64,000 nt of DNA. It comes from Octopus vulgaris (lineage: Eukaryota). The position numbers and the translations under genes are program-made. The DNA lies in the NCBI GenBank assembly GCA_951406725.2, contig OX597814.1:181908001-181972000 (forward strand), given 5' to 3'. Shown in pieces: positions 11,601 to 35,940 of the stretch; position 1 is the first letter of the stretch, and each line of letters starts with the position of its first letter. The notes beneath the pieces were generated by a model. The model made no database searches and was not told the origin of the DNA. It was given only the letters and a program-made list of their open reading frames with translations.

Positions 11601-12643
11601 ATAATACCAAAAAAAAAAAATAACCTAATGAGTATATCTGAAAGTAAACTCATGGTATCCATTTGCACATCACGAAATAATACTTAACAGACATAACCAT
11701 TATACCAGCAGGGTATATACTATACTTCCTTAATTATCGCCAACTTTAGTTAACACTAAATTAATTAAATATGAAGGAACTATATGTGTTTCAGTATTGG
11801 AACATTATAATATATATACATACACACATCTATTCTCCTAACTGGTGTGCCTATTCTGCACACTCTCATCTGCCAATCATTTCTTTTACTCACCATGATA
11901 TGCTTCCCATAACTGAGAGTAGGAACAGGAGGTACTTGATTTGTGTATATTGAATATCTCCTGTCCCCATACCAATGCCACCTATAACCTGTTATTACTC
12001 TTTCCTCCAGAATCATGATGCTTGTGTGAGGAAGGTTTGCATTCTGACAGCCTTTATCCAGCCTTCCTGATTCTCTTGGATGCACCATTCTACCCATCCG
12101 TATATAATGTGGAGCAAAATTCCACCTCCTCCAACTCAGCATCATTCCTCCTTCCCACTCTGACTCCCTCTTACAAACCCATCAGTACTTTTACCTTTCC
12201 CTCCTGTTACTGTCTTCACACATTTTATCCTAACTGAATGATATGGAGTAACACTGCATCTCCTACTCAACTCTCTCTACCACCCTATCATTCTGTTATT
12301 AACCCTAGCAAATGGGCCAATGTGTGTTGTCATGTTATTTTTATATTTATCTTGAAATGTACAAGTATCTAATAAAAGTCAATTTAGGCTTTGGGATTAA
12401 TAGATATGCGGGTATTCTATTTCAGATAATACAAAAAAACCTAATGAGTATATCTGAAAGTAAACTCATGGTATCCATTTGCACATCATGAAATAATACT
12501 TAAAGGACATAACCATTATACCAACAGGGTATATACTATACTTCCTTAATTATTTCTTATTTTAGTTAACACTAGATTAATTAAATATGAAGGAACTACA
12601 TGTGTTTCAGTATTGGAAGATTATAATATATATACATACACAC
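11601..12643. repeat. Two ~220-bp direct repeats (11601-11828, 12426-12643) flanking a minus-strand RTE endonuclease-like relic
   Basis: Shared text aacctaatgagtatatctgaaagtaaactcatgg...catacaca; the spacer on the minus strand has CIQE/FLT/FW/GGIG remnants. Confidence 0.8.
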
Positions 12644-13489
12644 AATTGTATACATATAAATATATATATGTAATCATCAGATTTACAATTGTTCCAACAC
12701 ATCTTCAGGTTCTTTTTCAAAATATTATAAATCTAATTTTACATTCCTTTAAAAGGCAATAATATTTAAGCATTAAAAATTAAATAGAAAATTATACTTT
12801 GTAATATTAAGAATTAAAATTTATAAATTATACATTATAAATATGAATTAGTATATATATATCAACCTCTTAAAGTCAAGTATATAATGTCAAAAACAAA
12901 TTATAAGATATAAAATTATACTTCAGAATAAAAATGTTTAAATGTGAAATATAACAAGAAAAATTCAACTACATATCTTCCTTTTTTGCTAGTACCAGGA
13001 TTAGTTTTCAAAATGGCGATTAGAGGAAGATAGGGAACTATGGGAGCTTATAGGTGATTAGTACCAAGCTGGGGGGGGGTAGTTACACTATGCATAGTTT
13101 AAATTTAAACTATCCTCTATTACTATCTTCAGTTTACCTTTGTGAGGAGATATTTATTATATAATTTTAGTAATACTTAATTCATTTATTTATTTAAATT
13201 ATTTATATATTTATATAGCCTATTCAAGTGCTGTAGAAATAAAATTGTGTGGATATTTTGATTCTGGGGTGGGGATTCAGTATTTCATTTTGTTGAAGAT
13301 AAAATTACTTTGGTGTCTACATTTACTCCACATTCATCATATGTGTTTAATAATTCATCTCTAGACTGTAGTAGTTTAATAAATTTTGTTAGGCATAATA
13401 AACACTTTTTATTCACAATATTATAAGAGTGGGCTCTACCTATTATACTCCAATTAAGAGTGTACTCTCTTTTTCTAGATTTTTATTCC

Positions 13490-14392
13490 CATATGACTGC
13501 TGAGGACATGTGTAAGCTTGCAAGAAATGAAGCTAGTATGCTCCGCTGGATGTGTAATGTCAGTGTGCATACACAAGAGTGTAAGCACCCTGAGAGAAAA
13601 GTTGGACATAAGCATCAGATGTGGTGTGCAAGAGAGACTGTGCTGGTATGGTAATGTGTTGCATATGGATGGGGACAGATTTGTGAAAAAGTGTTACAGC
13701 CTAACAGTGGGGGGGGGGGGACCTGTGGAAGAGGTAAAATCAAGAAGACCTGGGATGTGGTTGTGAAGCATGACCTTCGAACATTGGGTCTCACTGAGGC
13801 AGTGACAAGTAACCAAGACCTTTGGAGATATGCTGTGCTTGAGAACACCTGGTAAGCCAAGTGAGACCATAACTGGCCTATGCCAGTGTAGCATTACCAG
13901 CCCATTTAAGTGTACCAATCAATCATTGGGCTATAAACTATGCTTGAGAAGACCTGTTGAGTCAAGTGAAATCATTGTCGTGGCCAATGCCAGTCCCATC
14001 AGACTGGCTCCTGTGCCAGTGGCATGTAAAATGCACCATTTGAGCATGGTCAATGTCAGTGCTGCCTGGCTGGTTCTGTTCAAGTAGCATGTAAAAAGCA
14101 CCATTTGAGTGTGGTCATTGCCTGTGCCACCTGACTGGCTCCCCTGCTGGTGGCATGTAAAAAGCACCATTCGAGCGTGGTTGATGCTAGTATTGCCTGA
14201 CTGCCCCTTTTGCTGGTGGCATGTAGCACCCACTACACTCTTGGAGTGGTTGGTGTTAGGAGGGGCATCCAGTTGTAGAAACCTTGCCAGATCAGATTGG
14301 AGCTTGGTGCAGCTTTTTGGCTTGCCAGTCCTCAGTCAAGCTATTCAACCCATGCCAGCATGGAAAGCAGATGTTAAATTATGATGATGATG
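13490..14392 (+). mobile_element. RTE LINE 3' end continuing into the family-B 3' repeat and (GAT)n tail
   Basis: EASMLRWMCNVS, LREKL.I..IRCGVQER, VVKHDLRTLGLTEA; then ~60-bp internal repeats and tail. Confidence 0.85.
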
Positions 14393-14941
14393 CTTTGAGT
14401 ATTGTTGAGGAAGGGTCTTATTTTGAATAAGGGAACATGATTTCCTTAATTTTCTTCACTGCATACTGGTGTAAGTTCAGAAACCTTGTTTGTGTCCATA
14501 ATACTGGAAAACATACTGGTCACCAAACAGTTCGTCCATGTTCCAGAAGTTTGTAGTTATGGTCAGCTTCTTAATGTCCATTATAATGTTTAAAATGCCC
14601 CAATTTCCTCAAGGCATGTGAGAAACTGTAAACTATTGCCCCCCTCCCCCTCTTTGTTTTATAATTCTGTGTTACATTTTGTTTCTGCAGTTACTGTTGG
14701 GAATTATTGAAGATCAAAAAATATAAAGGAATAGCCAATTGCTTGCAACTATTGGAAAGACTGTGATTGGGTCCTATCTCTTTTGAAAAAACTTAAAAGT
14801 ACTTTCTAAGTACTTACTTCATACTGTTTCTTGTAGCACTCATCACTTTCATTATCATTACAGAGCTATTGGAGTTACTGCTTTTGCAATTAGAAATTGA
14901 AATATCTGATTCTCCATTATGCACATTGTTATACTTATTGT

Positions 14942-14985
<44 letters not shown>

Positions 14986-16479
14986 AAAATCCTTCACTTC
15001 AAATTCTGAATCACTACTGGTGAATGTGAAACTGGTTTCCATTTTTTCAGTCATAAAAGACAAAAAGCATTTTGGGTGGTTTCAGGTGGGTTGATAATGA
15101 ATAGTTTCTATCAGCTTTTTTCTCTTCAGCTTAGCTTTTTGAATTCAAGATTAGGCAGAGACTCTGTTTTTTATTGCATAAAAAAAAGAGAGACCCATCA
15201 CAAAAATTTAAAATTAAAGTCAAAAGAATATTTCTGAAGTTTAAAGGTTATTTAGTATTTGATGCTTTATCTTTTAATAATCATAGGTGGCTTATTGTAT
15301 TTCAAAACTGTCATATTGAACTTATAAAATATGAAGGAATTATCTCGTTCAGTATCTTCAACAACTACCACCAATACTGCTAATTTCTCAGAATCTGAAA
15401 ATTGGGCTGGTGGGGGAAAATAATTCTAGGTTAGCCTTCCCTACATAGAATATCACAACATTAATTCGAGAATTGTAAATGAAGTAATGCAAATATGCAT
15501 CCTCTCATCCACTATTTTGTACTTAACACTTACTTGATCTTTTTACAAATCCTTACAACATTAGCACAGCCTCATATTACAATTGACATCACAGTTACCC
15601 TACCTTTTCTATAGTCATTACTACATAATGACTTCTAGACAGCATCAACCACATTCAAAGAGACTAGTAGCCTGTACAAAATCCACCTCTTCCAACATCA
15701 AATGTAACAAACTGCCACATGTATTCACCATACTGCTATCATCATCAGTAGCAAGCATCTACCTTTTCTATGTTTTCATGGAATAGGTGGGTCTTCCTTA
15801 GTATAGCTTTGTGATTATCATTTATTTCATAGTGTTCAACCCTTGAGGTCAGCTTTCACCCTTGGTCTTCTTCTTTTGCATGATCTTTCCACTTTAATTG
15901 CATGGAACTTAGAATTTGTTACAAGTATCAAATGTTAAGATCAATGTAGCATGCTACATGTGATACACCTTATACCTAATTTTTTTCCTTAGCTCAGTTG
16001 TAATCTGTTGTTCAAGCATGCTAATGTTATATAGCCAGCAATGAATGCTTGCTTCATTTTTTTTTCAGCCTTCACAATACCTCAATATGAAATGCCCATG
16101 TTTTACTCTTGCACAAAATCAAACATCATGCATAAGCATCATCCATGCAATCTACCCCTCACTTAGAGAGTGAGTCCTAAGTCCTGGGGTCAATTTGTTC
16201 AACTAAAAGCATTCAAGGCAGTGCTCCAGCATGGGCACAGTCAAATGACTGAAACAAATAAAAGAATAAAAGGATAGATATCAAACATTCAAACGTAACC
16301 ACTTCTTAGATATTATTGTCTTCTTTACTGCTAACTAAAATTTTGTCTTTACTTTGGGACCTTTCAATTTTAGGATTTGTTTCCACATTTGGAATTTCTT
16401 TTGTAATTCCTTGACAAAGAGCTGTCAGAATTAGGTCATTGGTATGCAGAAGTTGCTATGGACAGCTGTCTTAACATAA

Positions 16480-17650
16480 GGACTGGAAATCTATGATAAA
16501 CAGGAGGAAATTGAGAACAGCCCTGATGGACACCTTGCTTGTTAAATGCCTTGCTAAACTCATTATTAACTCACTTTGCTGACAGTATTTTTATACATAG
16601 CTTGAATAGCTTTTACACACTATTCATCTACACCTAGTTTTCTTAATGATAATGAGACTATACTGCATGGTATTCTGTAGTTGTATCACTGGGAAGAGGG
16701 TATTAATGATACTCACATTCAGACATTAACCCAAACTGCATCTCGTCTAAATTAATTCACTTTGTAGACATACTTGAATACTTTGTTTCTTTATGATGTG
16801 GTCCATCAATTAAAAACGTTTATAGTTACTCCTTTCTAGAGATTTTTGTTTGTTTTTGCTTATGTAGCAGTTGATGATGATACTACTATGGCACCCACTT
16901 AACAGCAAAATTCCTTCAGATAACATACTTACTGTCCTGCACTTAGGAAAAACATTGAATATTCAAGGCTTTGATCATAGACCTAATCAACTGGAGTAGA
17001 CCTGGTACAAATCAACAATAACCCTGATTGACTATGCAAGTGACAACTGCATGTCCTACTTTGCCAGACCGTTTCAGTACATTAGCAACTACTTCTGATA
17101 GTCTAATCCTTAATAGTACTTTCAGCTATATAACTGTCAACTTCAATAGCTAGTTCCTCTATTGAGTCTAGCTGGAACCATGCTCCATCCTCACAAATCT
17201 TGTCTATGGCTCATAGCAGATTGTCTTGTAGAAATCCCAGTTATTCTTTATGCTGTCATTATCATCATATGCAGGTACATCTTCTTAACACCAGCTAGTA
17301 TTTCTATGAGCCTATGTTTGGCTGGAGGGTCGTTCAGCTTCCATACTGTCCTTCCATACTCTAGTGTCTCAGAATATGGCTAGCTCTTGCCTTGAGGTTA
17401 TTGATCACTAGTCTATGTTAAATTGTCCCTCCTCCACGTAGGAAGGACTCACAACTGGTTACTGTCCTATTTCTTGAGTGTGAAATCTATCTGGTATACA
17501 TGTTCATCTGATTAGTAGATTTATACAGTGGCTGGTTGTTTGCCTGAAGTTATTGTTGTAATGGGTTAAGTCAATTGTGTCACTGAGCTGCAGAAGCCTT
17601 GATTCCTCCTCATTCTTCATTCTTCATACCATAGAGTCTCATATTTACTA
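16480..17650 (-). mobile_element. Highly degraded RTE LINE (endonuclease end and RT pieces)
   Basis: Minus strand: NEE..RLL, N.FR, QIDF.L near 17470-17630; SLRKLGVDE...AIQAMY near 16580-16660. Confidence 0.55.
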
Positions 17651-17809
17651 GAAATAATCATCATGGTGTCACTTAATGAGTCTGTTTGTTACATTAATAG
17701 CCAAAAGAGTTGTTTCACGCAAATGGCACCCATGCTGGTGGCACATAAAAGCACCCATTACACTCTCAGAGTTGTTGGCGTTAGGAAGGGCATCCAGTTG
17801 TAGAAATGT

Positions 17810-18175
17810 TATTATTATTATCATTATTTAGGTCACTGCCTGGAATCAAACTCGGAATCTTGGGGTTAGTAGCCCGCACTCTTAACCACTACGCATACGG
17901 TGTTATGGTTACCACTACGCCATAGGCTCATGGGCACATGGCATAGTGGTTAAGAGCGTGGTCCACTACCCCAAGATTCTGAGTTCGATTCCAAGCAGTG
18001 ACCTAAATAGTAATAATAATATCGAAAAATACCTTAGGAATGAGAACCCAGGTTCAAAATTTTCCCAAGACACCTGATGAAGGCTGGAGGGTACATCAGT
18101 TGTTGTGTTAACAGCAAACAAGATGAGGACAAATATCCATCAAATGTAAATAATTCCTCATCTCTTAAATATAAA
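17810..18175. mobile_element. Head-to-head pair of tRNA-like heads; the plus copy continues into a Penelope-like tail
   Basis: 17828-17894 is the reverse complement of ~17940-18005 (tagtggttaagag ... gagttcgattcc); CTGATGA at 18074. Confidence 0.7.
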
Positions 18176-18445
18176 ACAGAAAGGGATTTGTTTGATTTGT
18201 TCGGTAAGTGAAGTTTCTAGTACTGACTTGTTCTAGTTTCTATGTACCACAGTTTCATTTGCTAAAAAATAGGTACTACTTACCAAGCTTTTTTTTTGTA
18301 TATATGTTTCATTAATATTAAGTTTTTTGTGTTTGAAATCCATTATTTCTATGAAGTCTGTTGCAAAAATTATTATATGTATTAATGTTATGTAAGAATT
18401 TTTTAGTTACCTCTGATTATAGGGTCGGTTTCGTTTTATTTTCAG

Positions 18446-18990
18446 ATTCATCTGTGTCAGCACCTTTACAACCTGAAGAACCAGATAAGGATATTTCTAC
18501 ATCTGATAAAGATGATACAGAAATAAGTAAGGATGTATCTAATTCTGATGAAAAGGAAGAGGCTGATCTGGATAATGATAACGGCAAAGAAGTTGACAGC
18601 AATTCTGAAAGGCTTTCTAAATCACCATCTCCATTACAGTTTTCAAGAAACAATTCCAATGAAGATTTGTCGAGTGTTACTAAGTCTTGTGAAATTTCAG
18701 AAAGTTGGGAAAATAATGATAAAAAAAGATCTGCTGAGGAAACTGAAGATTGGACTGATGCAGAAATTGCCCCAGTAAAACGATCTCGTTTAGATGATGT
18801 AATTGGTAACTTAGGGTCACGGATTGGTATTAAATTAGATTCTATCCCATTTGATGATGAATTGGAAGAGTCTAGTAAAGACAGTGATTCTAGTGAAAAA
18901 CCCTCTGAAGATTCAGTAACAACAGATGAAGAAGAAGATCAAGAAAAAACATCAAATTCAGACCAAAAGTACATCAAGTTATCTGAAAAG
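18446..18990 (+). CDS. ATF7IP: ATF7IP coding exon 2 (acidic region, PVKRSR NLS-like motif)
   Basis: Acceptor ttttattttcag; phase 1 in (G+AT=Asp); donor AAG|gtagca, phase 0. Confidence 0.85.
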
Positions 18991-19329
18991 GTAGCATTCA
19001 TTCATTTTGGAAATATCTTTGTTCCTAGATTACTACTTCATTGTACTTTGAACTTAGATATTTTTGTCTCTCAATTCAAAGGAACATTTTTCAAATATCA
19101 TAGCCTTTAACTCTTTTGTTATTATATTTCTGTTGACACACACCTCATTTGTTTCAGTTAGTTTTCAGATAATGAAGGCATGAGTAAATTAACGTGTTAT
19201 TATTAAACTGGTGTTTGGAACATAAACATGAAATTTTGATGGAAGGTTAAAACAGTATGCTTACGTCATAGAGCTAGATGTGATCTTGGCAAGTTGGTAT
19301 TAAAATATTTAAATAAATCAAAATTGAAA

Positions 19330-19686
19330 TCGATCAACATCAATGGAAATTGTAGCTGTGATATCAGTGCCGGTGGCATGTAAGAGAACCATCCAAACGT
19401 TGCTGTTGCCAGTGCCGCCCCGACTGGCCTCTGTACCGGTGGCACATAAAAAGCACCATCTGATCGTGACCGTTTGCCAGCCTCGTCTGGCATCTGTGCC
19501 GGTGGCACGTAAAAAGCACCCACTACACTCTCGGAGTGGTTGGCATTAGGAAGGGCATCCAGCCATAGAAACATTGCCAAATCAGAGTGGGCCTGGTGCA
19601 GCCTTCTGGCTTTCCAGGCCCCAGTTGAACCGTCCAACCCATGCTAGCGTGGAAAGCGGACGCTAAACGATGATGATGATGATGAT
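19330..19686 (+). mobile_element. Family-B RTE-associated element, CpG-retaining (young) copy
   Basis: gtgccggtggcacgtaaaaagcacc repeats; ggaagggcatcc; ggaaagcggacgctaaac followed by (gat)n. Confidence 0.85.
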
Positions 19687-21072
19687 TTCTGGGTTAAAAG
19701 TGTCATAAGATTTCATTACCATTTCAGTGATATTTCATTATGAAAACACAAATTAAAAGAAAAAAAATCAAATAAAAAAATTAATGTAATGGTGTATTGA
19801 TTACAGTTTTAATGCTTCATATATATTGTCAACATCATCATCATTCAATGTCAGTTTTTCATGCTTGCATGGGTTGGACAGTTTGACAGGAGCTGGCAAG
19901 TCAGAGAGCAGCACCAGGCTCCAATTGTCTGTTTTGGCATGTGTGGCTTTCAAATCACATGTGGAGTGAGGCAATGTATAGTGTGTCAGTGTACCAACTA
20001 CCATGAAACTACCAACCTCAGCAGGTTTCTTCCATGGCTTGAACTACTTTGGTCATGTAATATATATGCTGCAAACTTGAACATATGCAAATTGTATTTG
20101 TTTTAAACCCCCCCCAATACCAGTATCAGTTTGAGAGGGGAGAAGTTATTTGAAGTAGAATTTTACAGCCAGATGCTTTGCTGGTTGCCAACCATTACCT
20201 GTTTTTCAATTAAGAGGTTTCTTTATTCCACAGGTCTTCAAAAACACAGAGTGATTGGTCATATTGAAATTGATAAATGTCAATATTAGCACCATTCCAC
20301 TCATACGGAGACTTGAAAAGCATCAAAGTTCATGTGCATACATATATGGTGGGCTTCCTGTGATTTCTGCCTGTTAATTTCCCTCACAAGGCATTGGTCA
20401 GTTCAAGGCTATTGTACAAAATGCTTACTTAAAGTGTCACACATTTGTGAACTTCATTACACAGCCATGCCCACACCTATGTTCTAATTGCTGTTTAATG
20501 ATTTTTTCCTTCTTATTGTTCAAAACACTTGCACAATGGAACTTCTACTTACCAAATTCATTCACAAAGCTTTGGCTGGCCCAAAACTACAGTAGAAGAC
20601 ACTTGCCCAATATACTATGCAGTGGAACTGAATCTGAAACCATGTGGTTGGCAAGTGAACTTCTTCCACATTGCCATACCTGCAACTCGCATGTTGCAAG
20701 GTTATACACATTTATTATTAAAATTTTTTTTACTATTAAATTACTCAGTACTACATTTTTCACTTCCAAGCTACATCTGACAACTACTTGTACTGATTCT
20801 GGTCTTGTAACTCAATTACATCTATGTTGTATTCAAAACATTGGTAAAATTTCCCACTAAAGAGCTTTCATACTTTTTAAATGTGATTTGTGTTGAGTAA
20901 TTCTCTCCTATGAGTATGAGGTACTGAAGACAGGAGGAGTATATTTGATTCATATTTAATTAAACTCAGTTCTTTTGAATATTTAAAATATACTTGCAGC
21001 AAATTATAGCTGTACTTTTGATATATTAATATATATTAATACTAAACTGGTTTTTTTTTTTTTTAATCCTAG

Positions 21073-21282
21073 GAATTAGCTGAGATTGTAAAAAGAGAAG
21101 TTATGAATATTTTAAACAGTAAAGAAACCACTTTAGAAAGTCTTCAAGTTAAAATTGATGAATTACAAGCTACAAATGAATATTGGAAAACACAAGCAAA
21201 GGAGTTACATAAAGAAGTTCTTGAACTTACTGTGTTGCAGCAAAAACAGGAAAAACGAAAAGCTGCTGCTATTGCTCTTAAG
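21073..21282 (+). CDS. ATF7IP: ATF7IP coding exon 3 (coiled coil, probable SETDB1-binding region)
   Basis: Poly-T tract plus cctag acceptor; ELAEIVKREVMNIL...LESLQVKIDELQATNEYWKTQAKELHKEVLEL with heptad pattern; donor AAG|gtaata; phase 0-0. Confidence 0.85.
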
Positions 21283-22122
21283 GTAATAAATATTGTATTT
21301 GTTTTTGCTTCACCTGTTGTTTAAAGTGTGTTTTTTTTTTTTTTTTTTAATTTTATCTTTTTTTTTTTTAATACTAAAAACATGATCTGAACATTTTTTG
21401 TTACTTTGGATTTTGTGCCTTTTAGCAAATATATACTTGGATATTCACAATTAGGAAGCAAACATTTCAGGAAGATTTAAGCTGTAAGAAATAATGTTCA
21501 TAGCTCTAATATGAATTTAAATACCTCTAGTGTCAATAATTATCAGTATATTGTTGTAGACACAGTTGAGCTTGTGATTTATATATATATATATATATAT
21601 TTTTTTTTGTTTCATTTTTTAAAATAATAGTCAGCAGGGGAAGGCAGTGCTCTTTTTTCTAGGGTCTCTGAAGGACTGGTAGGAGAAAAGGTGGAAGATA
21701 CCCTTAGATATGTGACCTGGCCCCTATGCTAGCAGCAAAGAACATTCATGGGCTATTTATTGGTGTGAAACCTAGCAGTGGATTAAGTCTACTATTCAAA
21801 AGCAGGAATGATCCCTCTGACAGACTCCACATAGTTTCTGTTTACCTATTTTCTTTCTGAAGGCATTGGTCAATCTAAGGCCTTGATAGTGATGCCATGC
21901 AATGGGATTGAACCTGAAACCATGTAGTAACTTAATCTTATGACCATGCCTATATATTTTTCTCACCTACAATATCATCTTTTTTCTTAATAAATAAATC
22001 TCATTCAATTTTAATAAAATAATTTAGAATATTTTATATTTTGTTAAAATGTTTTTGTTGTTATTTTTTCATGTTAAGGTTTTAGAATGTAATTATTAAT
22101 TATATGGATTTTTCTCTTTCAG

Positions 22123-22167
22123 GCAATTACAGCAAGACATGTTGCTGTTCAGGTTGATGAAGGAAAG
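22123..22167 (+). CDS. ATF7IP: ATF7IP coding exon 4 (45 nt, AITARHVAVQVDEGK)
   Basis: Acceptor tttctctttcag; donor AAG|gtaaaa; phase 0-0; not in the ORF track. Confidence 0.7.
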
Positions 22168-22379
22168 GTAAAATATAATACAGTTTTGCTTTGTTTTTTA
22201 ACTTGGCCCAGACTGTTGTTAGTACATATATTATCAGCCTATACACTTTAAAACAATTGGTACAATTAGGGACTACTTGAAAATTGATATGTTGAATTCA
22301 AAAGGAAGATCAATGCCGAATAACAAATTAAACCAATAAAACAAAGCAATTAAGCTAACAAGGATTCTTGTATCCTGTT

Positions 22380-22920
22380 ATCATCATCGTTTAACGTCCG
22401 CTTTCCATGCTAGCATGGGTTGGACGATTGACTGAGGGCTGGCAAACCAGTTGGCTGCACTAGACTTCAATCTTGATCTGGCAGAGTTTCTACAGCTGGA
22501 TGCCCTTTCTAATGCCAACCAGTCTGAGAGTGTAGTGGGTGCTTTTACGTGCCACCGGCATGGGGGCCAGTCAGGCGGTACTGGCAACGACCTCACTTGA
22601 ATCTTTTACACATGCCACCGGCACTGGTGCCAGTAAGGCGATGCTGGTAACAATCATGCTTGAATGGTGTCTTTTACGTGCCACCGGCACAGAGGCCAGA
22701 TAGCCGCTCTGGCAACGATCACGCTTGGATGGTGCTCTTAATACCCTACTAGCACTGGGCTCGAGTGCCAGTAAGGCGACGCTGGTAACGATCACACTTG
22801 AATGGTGCCTTTTAAGTACCACTGGCACAGAAGCCGGTAAGCCGCTCTGTCAATGATCACACTTGTATGGTGCTCTTTGCACCCTACTAGCACGGACGCC
22901 AGTCATCGATTTTGATTTTG
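22380..22920 (-). mobile_element. Family-B RTE-associated element with ~60-bp internal tandem repeats
   Basis: Reverse complement of the 19330-19686 family. Confidence 0.85.
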
Positions 22921-24044
22921 ATTTCCTCTTGATATTTTTTATTTATTGACAGCACAGTATCATGAGTTATAATTATGTGGTTTGTTAAAACTGATGAGAA
23001 TATAGAAATATGGTAGCACTGTCATAAATTAGTATAAATAAAAATAATATATCATGAGGACAATTAGCTAACTGGCTTTTTGAGACTTCTATAGATTTTT
23101 AATATTTTTAGACCCAAATACATTACTTTTTTGTTATTTGTGAAAATTATTAGGTCTTCCAAAGAAGTGATTAAGTAGAGCAACAGACAGGCTAAATAAA
23201 ACATTGTACTTTAGTTTTGTCTTTTATTCTTCCTGACGTATAAAATAATCATCAGTAAGACTATTGAATACAAATAAATTTAGCAGGTAATATTTTTCTA
23301 ATGAACTTAGAGTATTAATGTTGCTTAGCTGTGTTTTAGTCCTTTCCTCTCCTTTTTATATGCCTTTCAAAATGCCAATCGCTTGAATGTTATGGGGAGT
23401 AGTTGTTACTTTTATTAGCTGGGTAAATGTTTAAAGTAATCTTGAAGTTTTTATTTTGCAGTATTTTTAACTTGATTTAATATATAATATGGTCTTTAGT
23501 TAAAACCTTACACTGCCATTAGTACACCCATTGTAATTTGCTTTCCATTTACAAGGTTAATTATATACGCATACTTTCATATTGTAGGTTATACTATATT
23601 GTTTAATTCTTATAAGAGGGTGAATAATAATAATAAAGTGGCTGCTAAATGTAGATTGAGTGATGTTTAAGTTCAGTTTATTGTATCCATGTGATAGTAG
23701 GAAAGTGATATTAGTAGCTATTCTTATAACATTTTCCACAAAAGGGAAGAGAATAAAATAGCTGTTTCTGAACCAATCCTTAGTTTTTATGTAATCTAAA
23801 TAGATTTTTAACTCTAGTGTATTTATGATCATAATCATTATCACCACCAATATTATCATGTTTCATAAAAAATTAGTCATTTATACTTTATAATTCTAAT
23901 ATATTTTGGCTATATGATGGTGTCACGTTTTACACCTGTTGTGATCACGTCATTTAAAAAAAAATATTGCCGTCATCCCAATATCATACTTGTCATGTTT
24001 TACACTTATTGTGATCACATTTTTTTTTTTTATCCTTGTTGCAG

Positions 24045-24326
24045 ACTTCCCAAACTCCCAGTTCAACTAAAACAGTCAAAATAACCACACAAAAGAAATC
24101 CATTCAATCACCTTCCTCTTTATCATTTTCATCATCATCATCTTCATCACCCTCAGCCCCTGTGGCAGTTTCAGCAAATCTTGGCATATCTGAAAATTCA
24201 TCCTCTCATTGGTCTCGTGCAATCACCACTCAAGCTACTATACAGTCTAATTTGGTAGCTCAGCCTACAGTGACTTCAGGCTTACTGTCCAATAATTCTA
24301 CTCCCTTAGCAGTCTATAAGAAAAAG
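24045..24326 (+). CDS. ATF7IP: ATF7IP coding exon 5 (Ser/Thr-rich)
   Basis: Poly-T tract plus ttgcag acceptor; donor AAG|gtgaga; 282 nt, phase 0-0. Confidence 0.75.
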
Positions 24327-25563: not shown

Positions 25564-26364
25564 ATTCTGCCACCTAATAATAGTAACAATAACAATAATC
25601 AGTCAAAGAATGGACAAGTGAGCAGTCAGTTAACTCCACCAGTCACCAAATACCAGTCCACAACAGTTAAAAGCTTACTTGATGCGTCACGTAATCCAAA
25701 CCAAGTGTCTACGCCACAAACTTTGCTTTACCAATCTTCTGGTCTAATTGTTGTATCTCCTCCAACTGCAACTACAACAACAGCAGCAAATACTACTACT
25801 ACAACCCGGAGTATTCTTACTAAACCAGTTACAAGTCAGGCACCAACTGGAGGTGTAAAATTAATAGATTTAACAGGGGATGATGAAGCACCATTTAAAA
25901 ATCAAGCAAATGGAAAGAATGTTGTCCACACAGCTGCCATTGCACCCATGGGATCTGTGCGGTCAAACATTGTCTCCCAACAAGTTGTTCGTCAGGTAAC
26001 ACCAGTACAACAACCAAAAGTACCTTTTGGTACATCATTTCTTTTAAGTACACCTGCTGGGACTCAAATCATCAGCCCAACAGTAACACAAGGTGTAGGA
26101 CCAGCAAAACCTGGTGTATGCCAGTATGTTCTTACATCAACACCCAATATCCGGCCGGGTGCATTAGTTACAGTAGTACCTACTACAGGAACACAGAACT
26201 CTTCAGTGAGACCACCAATTGTATCAAGTACAGTTGCAAATGCAGGTTCTTTACCACAGTTACGGCCAGCTCAACAATCCACTACAGCATCCTCAGTTGA
26301 TCTAACAAAGGCGATACGGCCACCTCCACCACTTCAAAGTGCCCCAGTGCAACAAAACACACAG
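25564..26364 (+). CDS. ATF7IP: ATF7IP coding exon 6 (Thr/Pro/Gln-rich; VKLIDLTGDDE SUMO-interacting-motif-like)
   Basis: Acceptor tttccag; 801 nt open; donor CAG|gtaagc; IDLT plus acidic residues as in the ATF7IP SIM. Confidence 0.85.
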
Positions 26365-28049
26365 GTAAGCTGAAAAAAAAATCATATTTCTTTCTTGGAT
26401 TTGATATTTTAAGTATTCCAGTTGAGCTTAGATAATGTATTTAGCTTGGTTAATAGCCAGAACCGAATTAGATTTTGTATTTGCATTTAATTTGGGGGAG
26501 TATTGAAAATTTTATGTTAAATATTTTCTGGTATGAGTAGGTTATATGTTGTGAAGTAATTTTTACCTCTACTGGAATACAGTACAGTGTTGTTAATGTC
26601 CTGAGTTTATATGTGTATAATACATGCTTCTTGTTTTTCCAGAAATTTAAACTTAAACATTTTAGTGTGTGCATGATGTGTGAGACCTATTATGTTCTGG
26701 ACCCTATGTATATTATATTCGGGATGACATGACTAAACTAAGTTAATCTATTATCCAAGCGATTTGATGTGTAACATAGCATTTAAATCATATTAATGTT
26801 ACATTTTTCTATGATAATGATATTAAACTTTTGTTGTATGTCATAAGTATGTCCACATTGGAGATTGTGCCCCTGTCAGTGTCTGAATGAATATAGCAAA
26901 TGTTTGCTGGTGTTTAGTGATATGAAGTAATCAGAAAGTAAAATTGACATTTGTAACAATAATTTTTTTTTCTTTACTGTGACAAATCTGTGCTGTAAAT
27001 AGATGCTATCTTGTGTGGTGTTGACACAATTTATATCCCACAAAATTAACACTCAAAAATGTTCTGCACTATGGTTAGAAACCTTTTTCATTTTTACCTC
27101 ATGTAAAACACTATATTTTAGTTTTAAGATTTTGATTTGAAAAAAAAAACTTTCACGTGATCCTGAATGTCTGTTGTGCAAAACATTAAAAAAGTTACAT
27201 AATGAAAATGTCAGAGGAGTTTTAAATTGTGCACATTTTATAGAATACATACTTTATTCTCTTTGTGACAATGTGACTGTGTGCATCACAACACAAACTG
27301 AATAGGAAGATTGAGATTGCACTTACTACACCATCATTATGAAAATCAAATTCATTTTCTAGAGCAAAAAGCAAAACAATCGTGTAGATTGTGTGATTCT
27401 ATAATATTGATTTTACAGCAAGTGAACTTTTATACACTGTGAGAATGCAGAAATTATAATAAATCTAAACACTTCTTTTCCTAAACATCATAGTACTAAA
27501 GAGAGATTTTTTTTTTTCCTAGGATTTCATTGCCTGTAATTAGTGGTGTGCCTTGTGATAATATATATACCTTGTAACAAATTTAATGAAAAGACATACT
27601 TCTCATTTGACGTAGTGGTTTTTCTTTATGATAATTTTAAAGCCTACAGCACAGTGGCTGTGGTTCATGCAGGGCTACTGCTCATGTGCTGGTATAGATC
27701 TGAGAATTAAGGATTCATTCTTTGAAAATAGCACTTAATATCACTACTATACTGGCAGTGGTAGTCAATGTTGAATGCCATATAAATCACAGTAAGTACA
27801 TCTTGCCCCTATTGATATGTACTTTGGAAATCCCAGAAAAAGATAGCAATTCCCATTGTTGAATAATCACTCTTATAATAAATGCTGTTGTCTATATATT
27901 TCATATCATGAAGAAAGATAACTCCACTAATATTATAGTTACCAGTTATTTTCCTTTCTTTTCTGTGTGTGTGTGTGTGTGGCATTCACTCTTTGGTACA
28001 CAGCATCGTCTCTTTCTCTCATTGCTCCTTCATCGTGCGCCTCATTTTC

Positions 28050-29435
28050 TTTCATTGCCCTAGATCTCAACACCCATTCTCATCTGGATTTTATGCCTAC
28101 TTATTTCCTGTATATTGAGCAAGGCTACTTCCATGTTGATACTGGAGACCTGTCTTCTAGGTTTAGCTTCAGTACCTGGAATTTTCCCTCCAATTCCACT
28201 ATAGATTCAGCTATGAGAACCAGAATATCAGTGTATAGAGATTCACATGGACGGCTGATGTTAAATCCCTGGTAGCTTCTTTATCTATAATGATTAAAAG
28301 ATAGCACTGAGGACTGAACTTTGCTGGAGCACTAATTCCATGCTAAATTCATCTCTGAAATATTTGTTGACCTTCACTTTCCTTATGACAGCTTTATACA
28401 TAACTTATACTGCCCCCACAAGCCATTTGTCTACTTCTAGTTTTCTTATTAATCTCCAAATTACTGAATGTGGTACTTTCTTCCTGTCAACAAATGCCAG
28501 GAATAGTGGTTCCCTTCTAAACAGGTATTTCTTCTTGGGAATGTTGCATAAGCGATGTCTTTGCTGGGCATGAAGTCTATATCTCATCTAGGTCTTCTCT
28601 GCTATGGATTAATTGTGCTATGATTCTTTGTGACCATTATAACCTGACCCAACGGTTTATTTCCTCAATAATTTCCTCTCTGTAAGGCATCTCTTTGGGT
28701 ATTAACTATCCTGGTGGTTATCATGTATCCTACCTCACCAGGGATTTTGAGCATTTCCACAATTATCCCTGATGGTCCAATAGTTTTCCTCCCCTTCATA
28801 TCTCTAATCACCTTATCTACCACACTGCTGTCAACTTGAATTGTTGGCCTCTCTGTAGTGGTCAGCATGAGGTAGCACCTTCCTCTGCATTCCTTCCCAA
28901 TAATGTTTTGGTTCTCTAACACACTATCTTGCAATCCAGAAGACCCCGCATTACTGATTCCCATATTGCAGGACAGGTGCAAATCTCTTTCTTCTTCACT
29001 CTTAGCCAAGCATACCTGTTGCCTAATTTAATAATGCTTTCTACTTGCCATGTTTTTTTTGGATTTTCCAAGCTTGTCTTATAGCCATTACAGCCTTATC
29101 AACTGTCATTCCATCACCACATCATCTTTGATTTGGCTGGGACTTTGCACCAACCACACATCTGATCTGTAGCCCAAAGCATGTCATTTCATAGATTTCT
29201 CTGTTGTTATCTATGCTATAGGTATCTTATTCCTCCCTACAGTCATGTATATATATCAATCAGAAATTTCCTGTTTACTACGCTCTCATTCTGAAGCCAC
29301 AAGTCAGTGTTGAGTTGTGCATATTTATTTAAATAAACCATATATGCCACATGTACATCTTCCTTATCCATCAGTGTGGGGCGAGTCCTTTTGTTTATGA
29401 TTCCTATTTTTAGTGATTGGCCTCTGGTGCTCATT
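28050..29435 (-). mobile_element. RTE LINE relic (endonuclease end plus RT)
   Basis: PLFLAFVD, KVPHSVIW, KLEVDKWLVGAV, GPSGIIVEMLK, DSLY.DILVLIAES. Confidence 0.85.
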
Positions 29436-30399
29436 TTCTATTAGAACTTTTTGGCTGTGCACTTCATTAATTGGTTTCTAATTTTCTTTTGTTATTTTGT
29501 TTCTTTGTTTTGTTAGACAGCATTTAAAAAATTTCCACCATTTGATTTGTCACATGTTCGATTTCATTTTTATGGGTTTTTTATATATATATATATAAAC
29601 CAGCTTCTTATGAATACTTATGTTTTTTACCTTCGGTTTGATGAGCATATTTCCTGCTTTTCAAAATCACTGTTCTTGTTTATTGTTTTTAAAATATAGT
29701 TTCTTAAGATGTTTTATTGAATGGCTCATTTTGTTGTTGTTTGTATCCTCTTTTTGACAAAGGGCTGTTTGATTTTTTTTTTACTCTATGGTGACATTTT
29801 GTTTTTGTTAGTGGTGTGTGTTTATATGAATGTTAGCTGTTAGGGGTTCAATTCCTAAATATTTCTATATGGAGCCTGGTGCATCCTTCTAGCTTACCAG
29901 TCCTCAGTCAAACTGTCCAACCCATGCTAGCATGGAAAGCGGACGTTAAATGATGATGATGTGCATGTAAGGGAATAAGCTAATAACAATTCATGCTTGG
30001 AATTTGTTTTTCACATATCTCTTTTCCTTTTTGTTGAGGGGAGGTAGTGGTGGTTTTACGATCTTATTGACATCATTTTGTTTCTACTGCCTGTGCATTG
30101 TTGGTTGTCTACCCAGTTTGCAGTTGAGACCATTTATTGAAGCTGAATTTATTTCAGTATCTACAATGTGATGATCTCATTTCATTTCTTTTGCATAGAA
30201 AGTGTATGCAGTGTGATTATTGTATTGTTCTGTGATGCATCAATGGGGCACGTTATGAAATTTTTATGTAAGGAGTTGTGGAGTCTCTTATTTTCTGTTT
30301 TGTATTTATCTTAAATATCAAAGGTACTTTGACGAGGACATTGCATTTTTTCTGCTATAATTCTAGAATATATTTGAATGCATGTGTGTATACACATGT

Positions 30400-31565
30400 G
30401 TTTATACTTTTAATTCATCCATTATGGAAACTTCCTTTCAAAGGAAAGAAGATCAGTGAGCAAATAACAAAAGAAAAGGAAAGAACAGTTGGAAACAAGA
30501 AGAGAAATTTTGACATTCATTTCTGGCATCCATCTGTCATAGGAAACAATATAGTTTTATACTTCCATGTATAAGCTGCAACACTTGTTGTGACTATGGT
30601 CCAATCCGCTGACCTCTGAAGGTACAAGCCTAATGTATTGAGATTCTGTGTTTCTCAGTTGCCAGGTTTTCTCTCTTAGCTTTGCTGATGTGATCCAATG
30701 AAGTCCAAAGCAGTATATTTGACACCACTTTGACTGTAGGAGTTGCTGGAAGATCATCTAAGAAGCTCCACTCCTGAATTTTTCATAAGGTTTATTTCTT
30801 AGTTTTGTCTTGTGAGACAGTGAAGCTGTTTACCTAATCTGTAATCCTGGACAGAGCCTGTACCAGGTGTTGTTGGCATGAGAGTGCAAGAATCATATCA
30901 GGCAAGGTTATCAGATAACAAAGTATCGCTGTCTATTACTCCGAAGAAGAAGAAGAAAAAAAAAAGAAGCAATAATATTCCTGTGCTCCAGGAAGGAAGA
31001 ACAGATGCATTATTAAGAAAACAGTTGAGAATGTGTGAAGCTCTGAAATGCCAAAATGAAATAAATTTAAGGATAGCAGAGCTTAGGGAATAAACCTCAT
31101 TAAGATATCAAAAATAAAATTGCATATGAAAGAAATTAAAGGAGGGCAGATATGAGAAAAAGACAGCCACAAAGATGTTAACATGAAATTGAAGAAGAAT
31201 GGAATATGAGATCTCTTAATGCACAAGCTACAGAAATATAGGAAGCAAATTCATAATGTAGGAGCAAACATAAATATCTATTTAAAAATAAATATAGTTT
31301 TCTATATTTTAGATTCATTTTATTATCATTTTCAACACATTTAACTAAGATAAACATTTCATAAATATTTCCCATCATTACAGATGGCATGGGTACACTA
31401 GTATAACATAATTGTTTAGTGAACTGTACCTTGAAAATTAAAATGAAAATAACTTTCTTTACTTCATATTTTGCTTCTGGTATTTAATTATATTTAGAGT
31501 AATAGTCTTAGTTTCAAATATTGTTTTGATAAAATCAAATAATTATTTCTGTATATATTTTATAT
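30400..31565 (+). pseudogene. Decayed tandem copy of the STPR-like unit with an internal insertion (~30520-30900)
   Basis: 30403-30480 aligns to 31563-31640; ~30940-31565 aligns to ~31660-32282 including downstream non-coding DNA; frameshifts and stops. Confidence 0.75.
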
Positions 31566-31586
31566 ACTTCTAATTCAACTGTTGAG

Positions 31587-32012
31587 GAGACGCCTCTTCA
31601 AAGGAAAAGAAGATTAGCAAGGGAACGACAAAGAAGGTGGCACTCAACCTTATCTCAAGAACAATTAGAAGCAAGAAGAGAAAAGGGTAGAAAAAGATAT
31701 TCCAGTGCTTCACAAGAAAGAATTAATGCAATAAGACTGCAAGCAAGAAAGCGTGAAGCTATGAAACGCCAAAATGAAACTGAAGAAGAGGGAAATTTAA
31801 GGCGGTCAAAGCTGAGGAAATGGGCATCACAGAGAATTCGAAAAGAAACTGTGGAAGAAAGAAATTTAAGGAGATCAATGATGAGAGAAAGACAATCACA
31901 AAGAATTCAACAAGAAACTGAAGAAGAGCGGAATAGAAGAAGATCTCTTAAAGCACAAGCTATGAGAAATAGAAGAAACAGTCAAAGTTGTAATGTAAGA
32001 GTAAACCTGTAA
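31587..32012 (+). CDS. Intronic open frame with 23-aa STPR-like repeats; candidate alternative terminal exon of ATF7IP, or a nested gene
   Basis: 141 stop-free codons from ETPLQRKRRLARERQ; 69-bp repeats start at 31776, 31845, 31914; AG at 31585-86 is phase 0; AATAAA at 32032 and 32065. Confidence 0.6.
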   Translation, partial: ETPLQRKRRLARERQRRWHSTLSQEQLEARREKGRKRYSSASQERINAIRLQARKREAMKRQNETEEEGNLRRSKLRKWASQRIRKETVEERNLRRSMMRERQSQRIQQETEEERNRRRSLKAQAMRNRRNSQSCNVRVNL

Positions 32013-33679
32013 ATAATATCTGTATTTAAAAAATAAATGTAGTGTCCTTTATTTTATCGTTTCCAATAAATTTAAAGCAAACATTTGCTGTCAGTTTAGA
32101 TGGCATAGGGACACCAGTATAACATTGCTTAGTAAATTGTGTACCTTGGAAGTAAAGATGTAAATGATTATATTCTTCACTTGATATTTTTCTTTTAGCC
32201 AATTATTTATATTTATGGCAATAGTTTTAGTATAAAATATGTTTTGATAAATGAAATAATTATTTCTGTTTAATTTTATACAATGACATTGGGAAATTTC
32301 CCCAAAGTAAGAAGAAAAGTCAGGGAAAAAATTTTTTTTTTCAAAATATACATTTTGAAATGTGATGTTGAGAGATAGCTGAGAGAGTAGAACTTGCAAT
32401 TGAATCCTTTATTGTGATTAGGTTGGCTACTTTACCTTTTGAAGATAACATAATTTTCTCTTTGTTCTTATTGTCTAAATTGGGTGGTCATCAATATATT
32501 TAGGATATCATAGATTTGGTGAGCAAGAATATAAAACAGATAACTGTTTTTTCCCACCTTTCCCATTTTCATTTGTAATAGAATTTCATTTTATTTATGT
32601 TTGGGGAAAGTGTTTCGATTTTAAAAGAATATATATATATAAAAGAATGAGTGCAATTTTGGTTTTGGCCTGTTGACATACTCCTCTTAACTCTTCACCT
32701 AGTTGAAAAAAACTCTCACTTCGTAATTGATTGATTGTTCAGAAGAATTTAAAATATTTGTTCCAACAATGCATATTTAAATAAGACCTCTCTCTCCTCC
32801 CACCAAAATAAAAACAACCCTGGGTTCTGTATGTAAAGTTTGACATCCCAGAAGCTTTTAATACACTAAACACTTTTTCTTGAATATGCACTGCTGAAAT
32901 TGGAGTATGTTTAATATGTGTGTGCATCTTTTATGCCATCAAATATGATATTCATATTTGCAGTACCTTCTAATTCAGTATAGGAAATAAATGCAACTGA
33001 TCAAAACCATATAACTTTCACTTATATTGACAACTGTCTTCCATTTCATATTGTGGTAGATTTGTCAGTGTTGCAACATTGTTATTTATTTTTAATGTTT
33101 CTCTATTCATCTAAATCTACTAGCTCTTAATTGTTGAAGTAAAATGTCTCCCAAAGGGCTGGCACTCTGGACAGGAAGAATTGGGAAAATGCTTAGTGTT
33201 GGACCTGGGAGGGAGGAATGATATGAATGATGAAAATAGGAAACATGGGTGTGATGGATGGGCTTTGGTAGAGGGGAGCATAATTAGCTTGATCTGAGAA
33301 GCAGAGGTCAAGTTGTGATAGAAAAGTCAGAGGGAAGAGACATCAAAAATTGGGGTTAAAGGTTGTTGTATATTGGTGAATGACTCCGTTTGGCTTTTGG
33401 AAAGGTGCAGCACTGACCCAAATGTAAGATCAGTATTTTATTGTAGGTGTTTCATTTTACAACAGTAGCTGTGAAACATGAAAATGACATCAAAACATAA
33501 ATAATAATATGTTAATACAAATAAAGATAGATTTACATGAATTTTAATTGAATAATTTGCATGGTCAAATTCTTTGTGTGTGTGAGTGTTTCTGTTGTCT
33601 TGACTGATGTTTTAGTACCTTTGAGAAAGGATATATATACTGGAAATTGCCTGCTCCAGTCACATCAGGCTTTTGTAAA

Positions 33680-33905
33680 AAACCTTTTTGTTATCCTATT
33701 TCTGTTAAAATTCATTGTCTTTATTTCACTTAATTTTGAAAATAATAAAGTATTTAACAAAATAACTTTGCCATTATTAAACTGGTGTTTGGAAGCATAA
33801 ATCAACATGAAATTTTGATGTAAAGTTTTAATTTAGACCACTTTGTACAGGAAGTTTGCATCATAGAAACCAAGGACAGTCTCAGGTGGGTTGGTATCAA
33901 AAGGG
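33680..33905. mobile_element. TTAA-type MITE, same family as ~19110-19310 and 63514-63730
   Basis: cctttttgttat...ggtatcaaaaggg|ttaa; shared internal text ctggtgtttggaa.cataa. Confidence 0.6.
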
Positions 33906-34017
33906 TTAAATTCAATCAATGTACAATTGAGGTGCATTCAGTATCTTGTTTGCATGAAATATCTATTCAAAGCAGTTGTTATGAATGATTAAAATGATGA
34001 TACTTTTTAACTTTCAG

Positions 34018-34174
34018 AGAGTAGTCTCCACTCTACTCAGTACCTCATCTTCAACAACTCCAGTAGCAAAACATCCAGCTCCATTACCATCACAGCCCAC
34101 TCCCACCGTAACATCAACAGGTCTTAAAAATCCACCACCCAAAGCAGGTCTTCGGATATCAAGGGTAGCACAAG
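34018..34174 (+). CDS. ATF7IP: ATF7IP coding exon 7 (Pro-rich linker and start of FN3: KHPAPLP...PPPKAGLRISRVAQG)
   Basis: Acceptor ctttcag; donor CAAG|gtaagt, phase 1. Confidence 0.9.
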
Positions 34175-34389
34175 GTAAGTTCTTATTTCTTTGATAATTA
34201 GTAAATCTAGTCAGTATTTATTCATTTGAAGTCTTAGTTTCATGGGATAGTTTATTTGCTGCTGTTTCATTTTTATTGTATTATTTCAGTAAAATCATTT
34301 AATGGGTCATTGAAAGCAACTGAAGTTGATTATTTTTAATTCTTGGCTAAGATAGAAAAAAATGTTATTATTGAAAAAAGTACTGTAGT

Positions 34390-34762
34390 TTATCTTTTAC
34401 TTGTTCAGTCACTGGACTGTAGCCATGTTGGGATATACTGCTTTGAAGGGTTTAGTTGAACAAATTAACCTCAGTACTTATTTTCTTGTTTTTTAAGTCT
34501 AGTACTTATTCTATCAGTCTGGTTTGCGGAACTGCTATAGTACAGGGACATAAACAAAGCAACATTAGTTGTCAAGTGGTGGGGGGCAAGCATGACACAC
34601 ACGCACATAATGGGCTTCTTTCAGTTTCTGTTTACCATATCTACTCACAGGGCTTTGGTTGACCTGGGGCTATAGAAAACATGTCAGGCACAATGAGACT
34701 GAACCCAAAACCACATGGTTGGGAAGTAACTATGTGGTCTTACCCATGCAGCCACATTTCAT
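34390..34762 (-). mobile_element. tRNA-derived SINE (family A), diverged
   Basis: Similar to 537-903. Confidence 0.75.
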
Positions 34763-34800
34763 GGCTTTCTATTAAGTTAATTGTTATTAATTAAGTGTTT

Positions 34801-35010
34801 AAGGCAGCAAGCTGGCAGAATTGTTAGCATGCTGGACGAAATGCTTAGTGGTATTTCCCTCATCACTACGTTCATAGTTCAAATTCCGCCAAGGTTGACT
34901 TTACCTTTCATCCTTTTGGGGCCAGTAAATTAAGTGCCAGTTGAATACTGGGGTAGATGTAATCAACTATCCCTCTCCCTTAAATTTCAGGCCTATAATA
35001 GAAAGGGTTA
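34801..35010 (+). mobile_element. tRNA-derived SINE (family C, Deu/Nin-like core cctttcatcctt..gggg); second copy at 41700-41903 on the minus strand
   Basis: Head ggcagcaagctggcagaattgttagca, B-box-like gttcaaattcc. Confidence 0.75.
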
Positions 35011-35252
35011 TTAATTAGATGTTTTCACATTATATTAATTTGGTGTTTTAAATTTGCATCCAGATAGAACTTTTCTATTGTATAAAACTAATCAGGATGG
35101 TTATACTGAAATGTCATTTCTCTTATTATTTTAGATTGATTTCTTAAATTTAAGTGGTATCTAAATTTTAAACAGTCCTGTGGGGCATGACTTGTTTTTG
35201 AAAATATTATATCTTATTTTAATTTTACTTTTTTTTTTCCTTGTTTATTTAG

Positions 35253-35368
35253 GCATTGTATTATCTTGGAATATGGCTTTAAATGAAAATCATGCTGAAA
35301 TTTCAAATTATCAACTCTATGCTTATCAAGAAGGAAGTGCCCCACCTAGCACTTCCTTATGGAAAAAG
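35253..35368 (+). CDS. ATF7IP: ATF7IP coding exon 8 (FN3: GIVLSWN...YQLYAYQE...LWKK)
   Basis: Acceptor ttatttag; donor AAG|gtttgt; motif characteristic of the ATF7IP FN3 domain. Confidence 0.93.
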
Positions 35369-35778
35369 GTTTGTAAAAACAAGCTTTTAGAATTGCTTTT
35401 TTGCCTGGTTAATTTATAAATCTTCAAGAAATAAAAGTATGATACTCCTTTGTTACACATTAAGGTTGTTTGCAATTATGTTTCTATTCCTGTAAACCCA
35501 AAATATGCTTTAGGGTAAAACATCTACAATAATAATACACACCCAAATTATGGTAAATTTTTATTGTATTTAGAAAGCAGTTTTATTGGCAAATTCTAAA
35601 AAGGATGTTTTCTGTACTTTGAACTTTGCTTTTGGTATTCTGTTTTTCTTCTCACACATTTCTGAGTTTCCACATACAATGGTAATCTCTATAAGAGCCA
35701 AACCACAGCACCTCTTTAAAAAAAATAATGTAATTTTTTTTCCCTTTTTTAACTCCATGAATGTTTTATTTATTTCAG

Positions 35779-35940
35779 GTTGGAGACATTAAGGCTCTAC
35801 CTCTTCCGATGGCTTGTACATTAACTCAATTCCATGAAGGAAACAAATATCATTTTGCTGTTCGAGCTGTAGATTCACATGGCCGTGTAGGGCCCTTCAG
35901 TGATCCTAGTACCATAAACCTTGGAGTTGGAAACAAATGA
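35779..35940 (+). CDS. ATF7IP: ATF7IP last coding exon ([43 protein letters not shown]...stop)
   Basis: Acceptor tatttcag; [14 protein letters not shown]...YHFAVRAVD is the ATF7IP/Windei signature; TGA ends 35940; AATAAA at 36303, 36341, 36537. Confidence 0.95.

Follow-up and report, generated by a model that had tools for sequence, protein, structure and literature searches.

The closest described parallels to the locus studied here are host-transposase fusions made by alternative splicing, such as PGBD3-CSB, SETMAR and KRABINER. For these, fusion transcripts are on record, and the splice site comes from the transposon (bioRxiv 10.1101/2020.05.07.082677). Three further elements matter for the comparison. 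The signature of the STPR domain is Glu1, Thr/Ser2 and Arg9 in each repeat, and three-repeat domains are allowed (PMC4856987, partial text). The 3' end of Helitrons is defined as a hairpin followed by CTRR (PMC6544945, partial text). Finally, silencing in mouse cells requires the SETDB1-binding region of ATF7IP, whose FN3 domain is a hub for targeting partners, e.g. ZMYM2 and MGA (PMC7706265, partial text). We found no open-access paper linking the STPR domain with Helitrons; the accessible part of PMC12062965 treats Helitrons as regulatory DNA only and does not mention STPR. A search of open-access text for octopus together with ATF7IP also returned no paper. The analysis presented here links the STPR domain to Helitron N-termini, a connection absent from the open-access literature searched.

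The window is the whole stretch of 64,000 nucleotides of Octopus vulgaris DNA that was analysed. An initial annotation had seen in it, within an ATF7IP intron, a frame that might serve as an alternative last exon with an STPR-like DNA-binding domain. This frame, hereafter copy B, derives from a transposon, and it is likely to be under constraint. The last-exon isoform is unproven.

The host gene was rightly named. Nine exons of the window reproduce protein P0024 from residue 20, the database matches are to Octopus vulgaris ATF7IP at 100% identity, and the FN3 family PF16794 is recognised in the last exon.

5092 to 24326, + strand: upstream ATF7IP coding exons 5092-6024, 18446-18990, 21073-21282, 22123-22167 and 24045-24326 (from P0024).
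25564 to 26364, + strand: ATF7IP exon 6, with a phase-0 donor at its end, joined to 34018 in all junction evidence listed.
34018 to 35940, + strand: three FN3-coding ATF7IP exons, 34018-34174, 35253-35368 and 35779-35940 (from junctions and PF16794, E 1e-18 in the last exon).

The first ATF7IP coding exon lies upstream of the window, at about 181,906,137 of G000:C1, so that a last-exon isoform would count about 1098 aa instead of the ~1072 aa originally proposed. Octopus ATF7IP presumably carries the coiled coil and the SIM named in the initial annotation. Some isoforms in the databases skip the 94-aa exon (24045-24326) and others shorten the first large exon (5092-6024); hence the gene is already variably spliced.

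Copy B and its most regular repeats occupy the following positions.

31587 to 32012, + strand: intact frame of 141 codons plus stop, a Helitron RepHel N-terminus with STPR-like units (copy B; from the ORF and from PDB and Helitron protein alignments).
31776 to 31982, + strand: three consecutive 23-aa units, codons 64-132, obeying the STPR rule E1, T2, R9 (rule from PMC4856987).

The same-strand frame is real: in the window sequence, 31587-32009 is free of stops and is closed by TAA at 32010-32012. From stop to stop it spans 159 codons, starting at 31533, and its first in-frame ATG is codon 59. The units measure, in order, 21, 19, 23, 23, 23 and 23 residues. The four 23-aa units are those first described, they are consecutive and strictly of this length, as in STPR domains, and the period is far above chance, since the strongest self-identity of the frame falls at lag 23 (0.30) and was reached at any lag by none of 10,000 shuffles. 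Among these four, the last three have E1, T2 and R9, whereas the first (ASQ...) lacks E1 and R9; R20 is found in all three rule-obeying units and R6 in two. All three lie downstream of Met59. The 21-aa unit at the start of the frame has E1, T2, R6, R9 and L10.

Comparisons with known families gave a mixed picture. The best of three PDB matches is FMBP-1 (5d23, E 0.0024), in register, and the top ESM Atlas clusters carry PF21107 (scores 0.87-0.88, which count as a lead only). A Pfam profile search with the frame returned no family at E<=1, and the place of copy B is missing from the 106 matches of a PF21107 genome scan (150 of 1002 candidates scored), the gathering cut-off not being reached. 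By its pattern the frame is STPR-like, yet it falls outside Pfam STPR membership. The proposed STPR-like domain thus stands as far as the register with FMBP-1 and three of the four 23-aa units are concerned, and does not stand at the Pfam cut-off. An AlphaFold2 single-sequence model gives one long helix (pTM 0.43) and is uninformative on binding to the DNA major groove. A 90%-cluster homologue search, weak by its own caveat, produced no database protein containing the frame (33 near-length and 417 longer candidates, none significant). The best match to the frame, a Logan protein of 831 aa (P0001, E 5e-11), has many degenerate STPR-like units and no Pfam family.

The origin of these repeats is clearer. 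Searching 1.84 billion representatives with the frame gave three matches, one of which, P0002, has the unit layout of copy B starting at its Met and then a Cys/His motif. We take this motif to be the Helitron-type one. As a query in the Octopus vulgaris genome, P0002 gave 23 matches, two of them with frames over 1000 codons. One of these two, the full Helitron L029 (G000:C25), matches PF14214 (Helitron_like_N, E 1e-44) and PF05970 (PIF1, E 5e-47), and its N-terminus aligns, from the Met, across the whole frame of copy B (35% identity; E 2e-12, the database being small), which gives copy B homology to RepHel. Two near-complete Helitrons were located: L029 (G000:C25:4102442) has a 1052-codon frame and then a broken helicase part, and L030 (C8:54927597) has an unbroken RepHel frame of 1687 codons. 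The end of the element is also visible.

32086 to 32117, + strand: Helitron-like 3' end, a hairpin and CCAG (32114-32117), then T (end definition in PMC6544945).

The hairpin begins ~75 nt past the stop of copy B. The decayed twin described below has a hairpin and CTAG (31398-31401); copy B and L029 have a hairpin and CCAG, one change from the CTRR rule, and the predicted energies are weak (-2 to -4 kcal/mol). On the other side, family homology fades at about 31540-31565, the DNA upstream of copy B is duplicated host flank, and no 5' TC end between A and T was located. The family is dispersed, with 19 DNA matches on 11 contigs including copy B itself, at 69-76% identity apart from self. Among the 12 best Pfam STPR matches of the genome that were fetched, 11 belong to one family, whose longer members run on into the Helitron-type Cys motif. 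Since copy B keeps the repeats and a Helitron-like 3' end while the enzyme is gone, the element is best described as a short Helitron that lost its enzyme. We show by these alignments that copy B is the N-terminus of a Helitron RepHel inside a short non-autonomous Helitron in ATF7IP intron 6; the transposon origin that had been suggested is thus borne out by P0002 and by L029.

Directly 5' of copy B lies a decayed twin, which the initial annotation overlooked.

30400 to 31563, + strand: decayed tandem twin (copy A), with its own ATG, stops, frameshifts, an insert of ~410 bp (about 30510-30920) and a duplicated 160-bp flank.
32118 to 32280, + strand: host flank duplicated with the twins, with 26 differences in 156 aligned bases relative to 31402-31563.

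The joints of the twins carry TTTATAC microhomology, and the tandem duplication put host flank in place of copy B's own upstream element DNA. The twins have 19 derived sites in common, which makes them sisters of one age. Besides its ~410-bp insert, which looks more GC-rich than its surroundings by eye and has no match elsewhere in the window, twin A has at least four frameshifting length changes. Decay is general in the family: frameshifts are found in all 13 relatives analysed (twin A included, two dispersed matches at C21:15.31 Mb and C16:23.76 Mb left out), and these have 24 stops in 853 codons against none in copy B. Over the frame, pairwise differences range from 18 to 37%, and the best match other than self in the DNA search has 76% identity. 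We therefore rejected a recent high-copy transposon fragment: the many near-identical dispersed copies that would have undone the original proposal were not seen, no copy being above about 82% identity.

Other STPR-like sequences are attached to the same gene. In the NCBI models of O. bimaculoides (isoforms X1, X2 and X3) and O. sinensis (isoform X1), two further segments of STPR-like type precede the start of ATF7IP and are joined to it in frame (XP_036363343.1, XP_052828669.1, XP_052828660.1 and XP_052828662.1, which are gene models and keep FN3). In the O. vulgaris genome both are open and lie upstream of the window, at 35 and 43 kb.

L036:5090-5425 (G000:C1:181873090-181873425): intact 112-codon exon with ATG and phase-0 donor, first exon in O. 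sinensis X1 and O. bimaculoides X3.
L037:6862-6942 and 7046-7534 (G000:C1:181864862-181865534): two exons forming a Helitron-type N-terminus (STPR-like units and Cys motif), as in O. bimaculoides X1 and X2.

The L036 exon scores above the Pfam STPR cut-off (31.1 bits, cut-off 27), and O. sinensis and O. bimaculoides differ in it by 5 substitutions and one deletion; its five nearest family copies are all broken, and no Cys motif or 3' end was found nearby. The L037 segment is open here, with a weak-looking donor and fewer repeats than the O. bimaculoides version, to which it is 73% identical; four of its five nearest relatives are broken, and the short first exon of the pair is used alone in other models. 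Both belong to dispersed repeat families (40 and 48 matches, respectively). Being annotated in frame at the front of ATF7IP, these two exons set a precedent for exon use in this very gene.

Has the frame of copy B been kept by selection? With the dispersed copies as outgroup, 347 sites show 53 derived changes in twin A (14 silent, 34 replacement, 5 to stop) versus 27 in copy B (5 silent, 20 replacement, 2 ambiguous; p=0.005). The neutral survival of codons 1-124, computed with an indel rate assumed from the copies, is 0.013 at copy B's own rate, 0.067 at 5% and 0.001 at 14% divergence, and the chance that the first 58 codons are open under neutrality is 14%. Copy B also retains six CpG-bearing Arg codons, at places where most copies have lost the CpG. 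In organism B, a second species for which the data are reads and contigs under one species label, the frame has an in-frame deletion of 3 nt and, in 423 bases, 5 substitutions, of which 2 are silent and 3 are replacements; one of the three replacements also occurs in organism A. The flanks, which are more AT-rich than the frame and whose counts were compiled from three runs, have 25 differences in 657 bases and several indels (Fisher p=0.012 vs the frame; 0.031 with contigs only). Exon 6 has at least 13 differences in 804 bases, 10 of them replacements, and the frame is hence about as conserved as a coding exon of ATF7IP.

On the other side, copy B was chosen for being intact, in a genome with more than 100 STPR-type frames. 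A dN/dS near 1 had been named as grounds for giving up the proposal, and such a value is indeed found on the branch from the family majority (pN/pS of 1.08). Yet the annotated L036 exon gives the same ratio (pS 0.079, pN 0.081, pN/pS 1.02), so that here a ratio near 1 does not separate an exon from a relic. In its last dozen codons, past the repeats, copy B probably has a frameshifting indel of its own, as 6 of 10 copies suggest. With half of the twin's substitutions, less divergence than the flanks and relatives that are all broken, selection on copy B is likely, and on this comparative evidence we lean towards a frame that selection has maintained.

If the frame is an exon, it should be delimited by usable signals, and several candidates were found.

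31584 to 31589, + strand: GAG GAG, candidate phase-0 acceptors, the first GAG standing at the start-ATG place of several family copies.
31992 to 32000, + strand: candidate phase-0 donor, GTAAGA from 31995, which with exon 7 would yield a symmetric 408-nt cassette.
32032 to 32070, + strand: two AATAAA hexamers, at 32032 and 32065, candidate signals.

The donor of exon 6 at 26364 is in phase 0 with the AGs at 31586 and 31589, both GAG, as had been claimed, and copy B is thus an open frame in phase with its host, as in host-transposase fusions. The nine real acceptors of the window are all CAG or TAG. The two AATAAA are where they had been placed, and the donor at 31995, inside the frame, had been missed; this GTAAGA is inherited, and the probable frame change in the last codons would have brought it into phase 0. 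The ctaat branch-like motif is present, although it stands only about 13 nt before the first AG and also occurs in the broken copies of the family, from which it follows that it was inherited from the transposon and not gained. The first AATAAA-like run is likewise found in broken copies, i.e. inherited. The ancestral ATG is gone in copy B and a phase-0 AG stands in its stead, yet no stop interrupts the 58 codons that lead up to the next ATG, which counts for splicing from upstream. Other acceptors were tried and rejected: the in-frame TAGs at 31505 and 31511 meet a stop within 5 codons, and the AAG at 31685 lacks a pyrimidine tract.

Of the 24 runs returned by a run search, in which no holder was on record as RNA, 7 were mapped (X1, X2, X5, X9, X11, X14 and X24). 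Run X24 consists of raw RNA reads, of which about 6% were read. The others are contig sets, six in number and assumed to come from RNA as a guess, which drop rare forms and cannot show transcript starts or ends; a joint missing from runs of either kind is no proof of absence. The canonical joint 26364-34018 is seen in 91 reads of X24 and in a contig of depth 287 in X5. The claimed splice from 26364 to 31587 or 31590 appears in none of the seven runs, nor in any annotated protein seen. It is not among the 15 joints listed of 103, and narrow mapping (threshold of 3 reads from 2 starts, or one contig) gave no joint or loose end at 31587, at 31994 or at the AATAAA sites. The 17 full-length cephalopod ATF7IP proteins examined all end in FN3 and none holds the frame of copy B. 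Within these seven runs, a spliced transcript such as defines a host-transposase fusion was not found for copy B.

What is seen instead is unspliced RNA. In X24 the depth at the acceptor is about 1, with 27 reads on 1351 bases, of which 6 continue unlike the window sequence, below the listing threshold; the upper bound on inclusion of the frame in this run is about 3-7% (95%). The contigs of X1, X2, X5 and X9 pass unspliced through the acceptor, that of X11 begins 4 nt before it and that of X14 stops short of it. Across the frame the contigs are unspliced, with a depth of 4-19 such as other intron pieces also show in these runs. The proposal further included a poly(A) end near 32050-32090, which was not seen in the seven runs: contigs of X1, X2, X9 and X11 extend beyond both AATAAA, while in X5 and X14 the contigs stop at 32091-32093, 21-23 nt past the second AATAAA, without an A tail. 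At the other extremity, contigs of X1, X5 and X11 begin at 31564-31583. Neither 8 reads at 31935 nor a small peak at 31629-31758, both in X24, were counted as signs of an exon, since by depth the peak fits one short duplicated fragment and no loose end exceeds the threshold.

How might such a frame be used? A short non-autonomous Helitron left the front of its transposase gene in ATF7IP intron 6, and a tandem duplication produced two twins, of which copy B stayed intact and copy A decayed. The reading that we prefer, tentatively, is that selection keeps the frame as a rare exon, or one used in unsampled tissues, spliced to the phase-0 donor of exon 6 as a terminal exon or as a cassette. As a last exon it would remove FN3, whereas as a 136-aa cassette it would leave FN3 in place in a protein of about 1237 aa. 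The first of these forms, which is the isoform originally proposed, is unlikely when taken by itself. By analogy with known families, the repeats would follow the major groove of DNA, like those of FMBP-1, and with them ATF7IP-SETDB1 would need no partner protein to find DNA that is AT-rich or belongs to Helitrons. A neutral relic, i.e. an old intronic Helitron fragment that is open by luck and transcribed only within the ATF7IP pre-mRNA, comes close to this reading in likelihood. It would account for RNA that is always unspliced and of intron-like depth, for a GAG acceptor, for a pN/pS of about 1 and for the missed Pfam cut-off, and the many STPR-type frames of the genome offered many chances for one to stay open. 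Silent and replacement rates are both lowered in copy B, which fits a slower local clock, and its branch of 8% is half of the 17% flank divergence between the twins. But luck fits poorly with the low survival chances at copy B's own rate and at 14% divergence, with a twin of the same age wrecked under the same local conditions, and with a frame that diverged less between species than its flanks and whose sole indel there is an in-frame deletion.

Selection might also act on copy B independently of exon 6, which seems unlikely to us. The frame could be an internal first exon, read from Met59 and joined via GTAAGA to the FN3 exons, in which case the STPR-FN3 protein would lack the part that binds SETDB1. 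It could also encode an STPR protein of 83 aa without any splicing, or act as regulatory DNA. That both annotated STPR-like exons of ATF7IP are first exons, that the rule-obeying units all come after Met59 and that a phase-0 donor stands at 31995 argue for such uses, as do the starts of the X1, X5 and X11 contigs and the ends of those of X5 and X14. Yet there is no loose end at 31994, contigs do not show starts or ends and those of X2 and X9 run through, host flank has taken the place of the DNA that once lay upstream in the element, owing to the duplication, and no protein of 83 aa or longer was found. Our tentative preference remains a rare exon spliced to exon 6.

On a broader view, ATF7IP might have captured transposon STPR repeats three times, as two first exons (present in NCBI models and undescribed as such in the literature searched) and as a last or cassette exon in intron 6, yielding SETDB1 cofactor isoforms that aim H3K9me3 at Helitrons by means of a Helitron module. 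We regard this as a rather improbable scenario. If true, the silencing complex would be aimed directly by an ATF7IP isoform that carries DNA-binding repeats from the transposon itself. Several captures by a single silencing gene would strikingly parallel the KRAB-transposase fusions, with a mollusc as host and Helitrons as source. Should copy B be no more than a relic, the better lead lies with the pair of annotated first exons. Elsewhere in the genome, the best Pfam STPR match (L039, G000:C3:151372159) is an open frame of 180 codons, in which about five units are regular and the Helitron Cys motif is missing; it forms a small cluster with two nearby matches at C3:151.34-151.36 Mb, possibly domesticated STPR genes. 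A long tandem array at G000:C30:18776700-18783600 has STPR-scoring frames at 138-nt spacing and open frames of up to 892 codons.

The comparison with known systems can now be made. With the STPR domains of Bombyx FMBP-1 and ZNF821 (PF21107; PDB 5d23; PMC4856987, partial text), copy B has in common the 23-aa period and E1, T2 and R9 in three consecutive units. It differs from them by falling below the Pfam cut-off, by the lack of L10 and Y16 in these units, and by having three regular units and not four; its DNA binding is predicted from sequence. With the N-terminal repeats of Helitron RepHel proteins (L029 and P0002) it shares the unit layout from the start Met, an alignment over the whole frame and a 3' end of hairpin plus CYAG; unlike them it has no zinc motif, Rep, helicase or start ATG, and it lies in sense orientation in a host intron. 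Among the RepHel copies analysed it is the sole open one of its subfamily. The annotated STPR-like first exons are alike in host gene, in repeat-family origin, in being intact among broken relatives and in their phase-0 joint, but they start with their own ATG, are in NCBI models and come from other repeat families than copy B. PGBD3-CSB, SETMAR and KRABINER, as far as the preprint cited above was accessible, differ in their documented transcripts and transposon-borne splice sites, whereas for copy B no such transcript was seen and the acceptor is a derived GAG. The donor element here is a Helitron, a word absent from the main text of that preprint. What copy B shares with these fusions is a DNA transposon in a host intron, a DNA-binding part whose capture by splicing beside the parental transcript is proposed, and a silencing factor as host.
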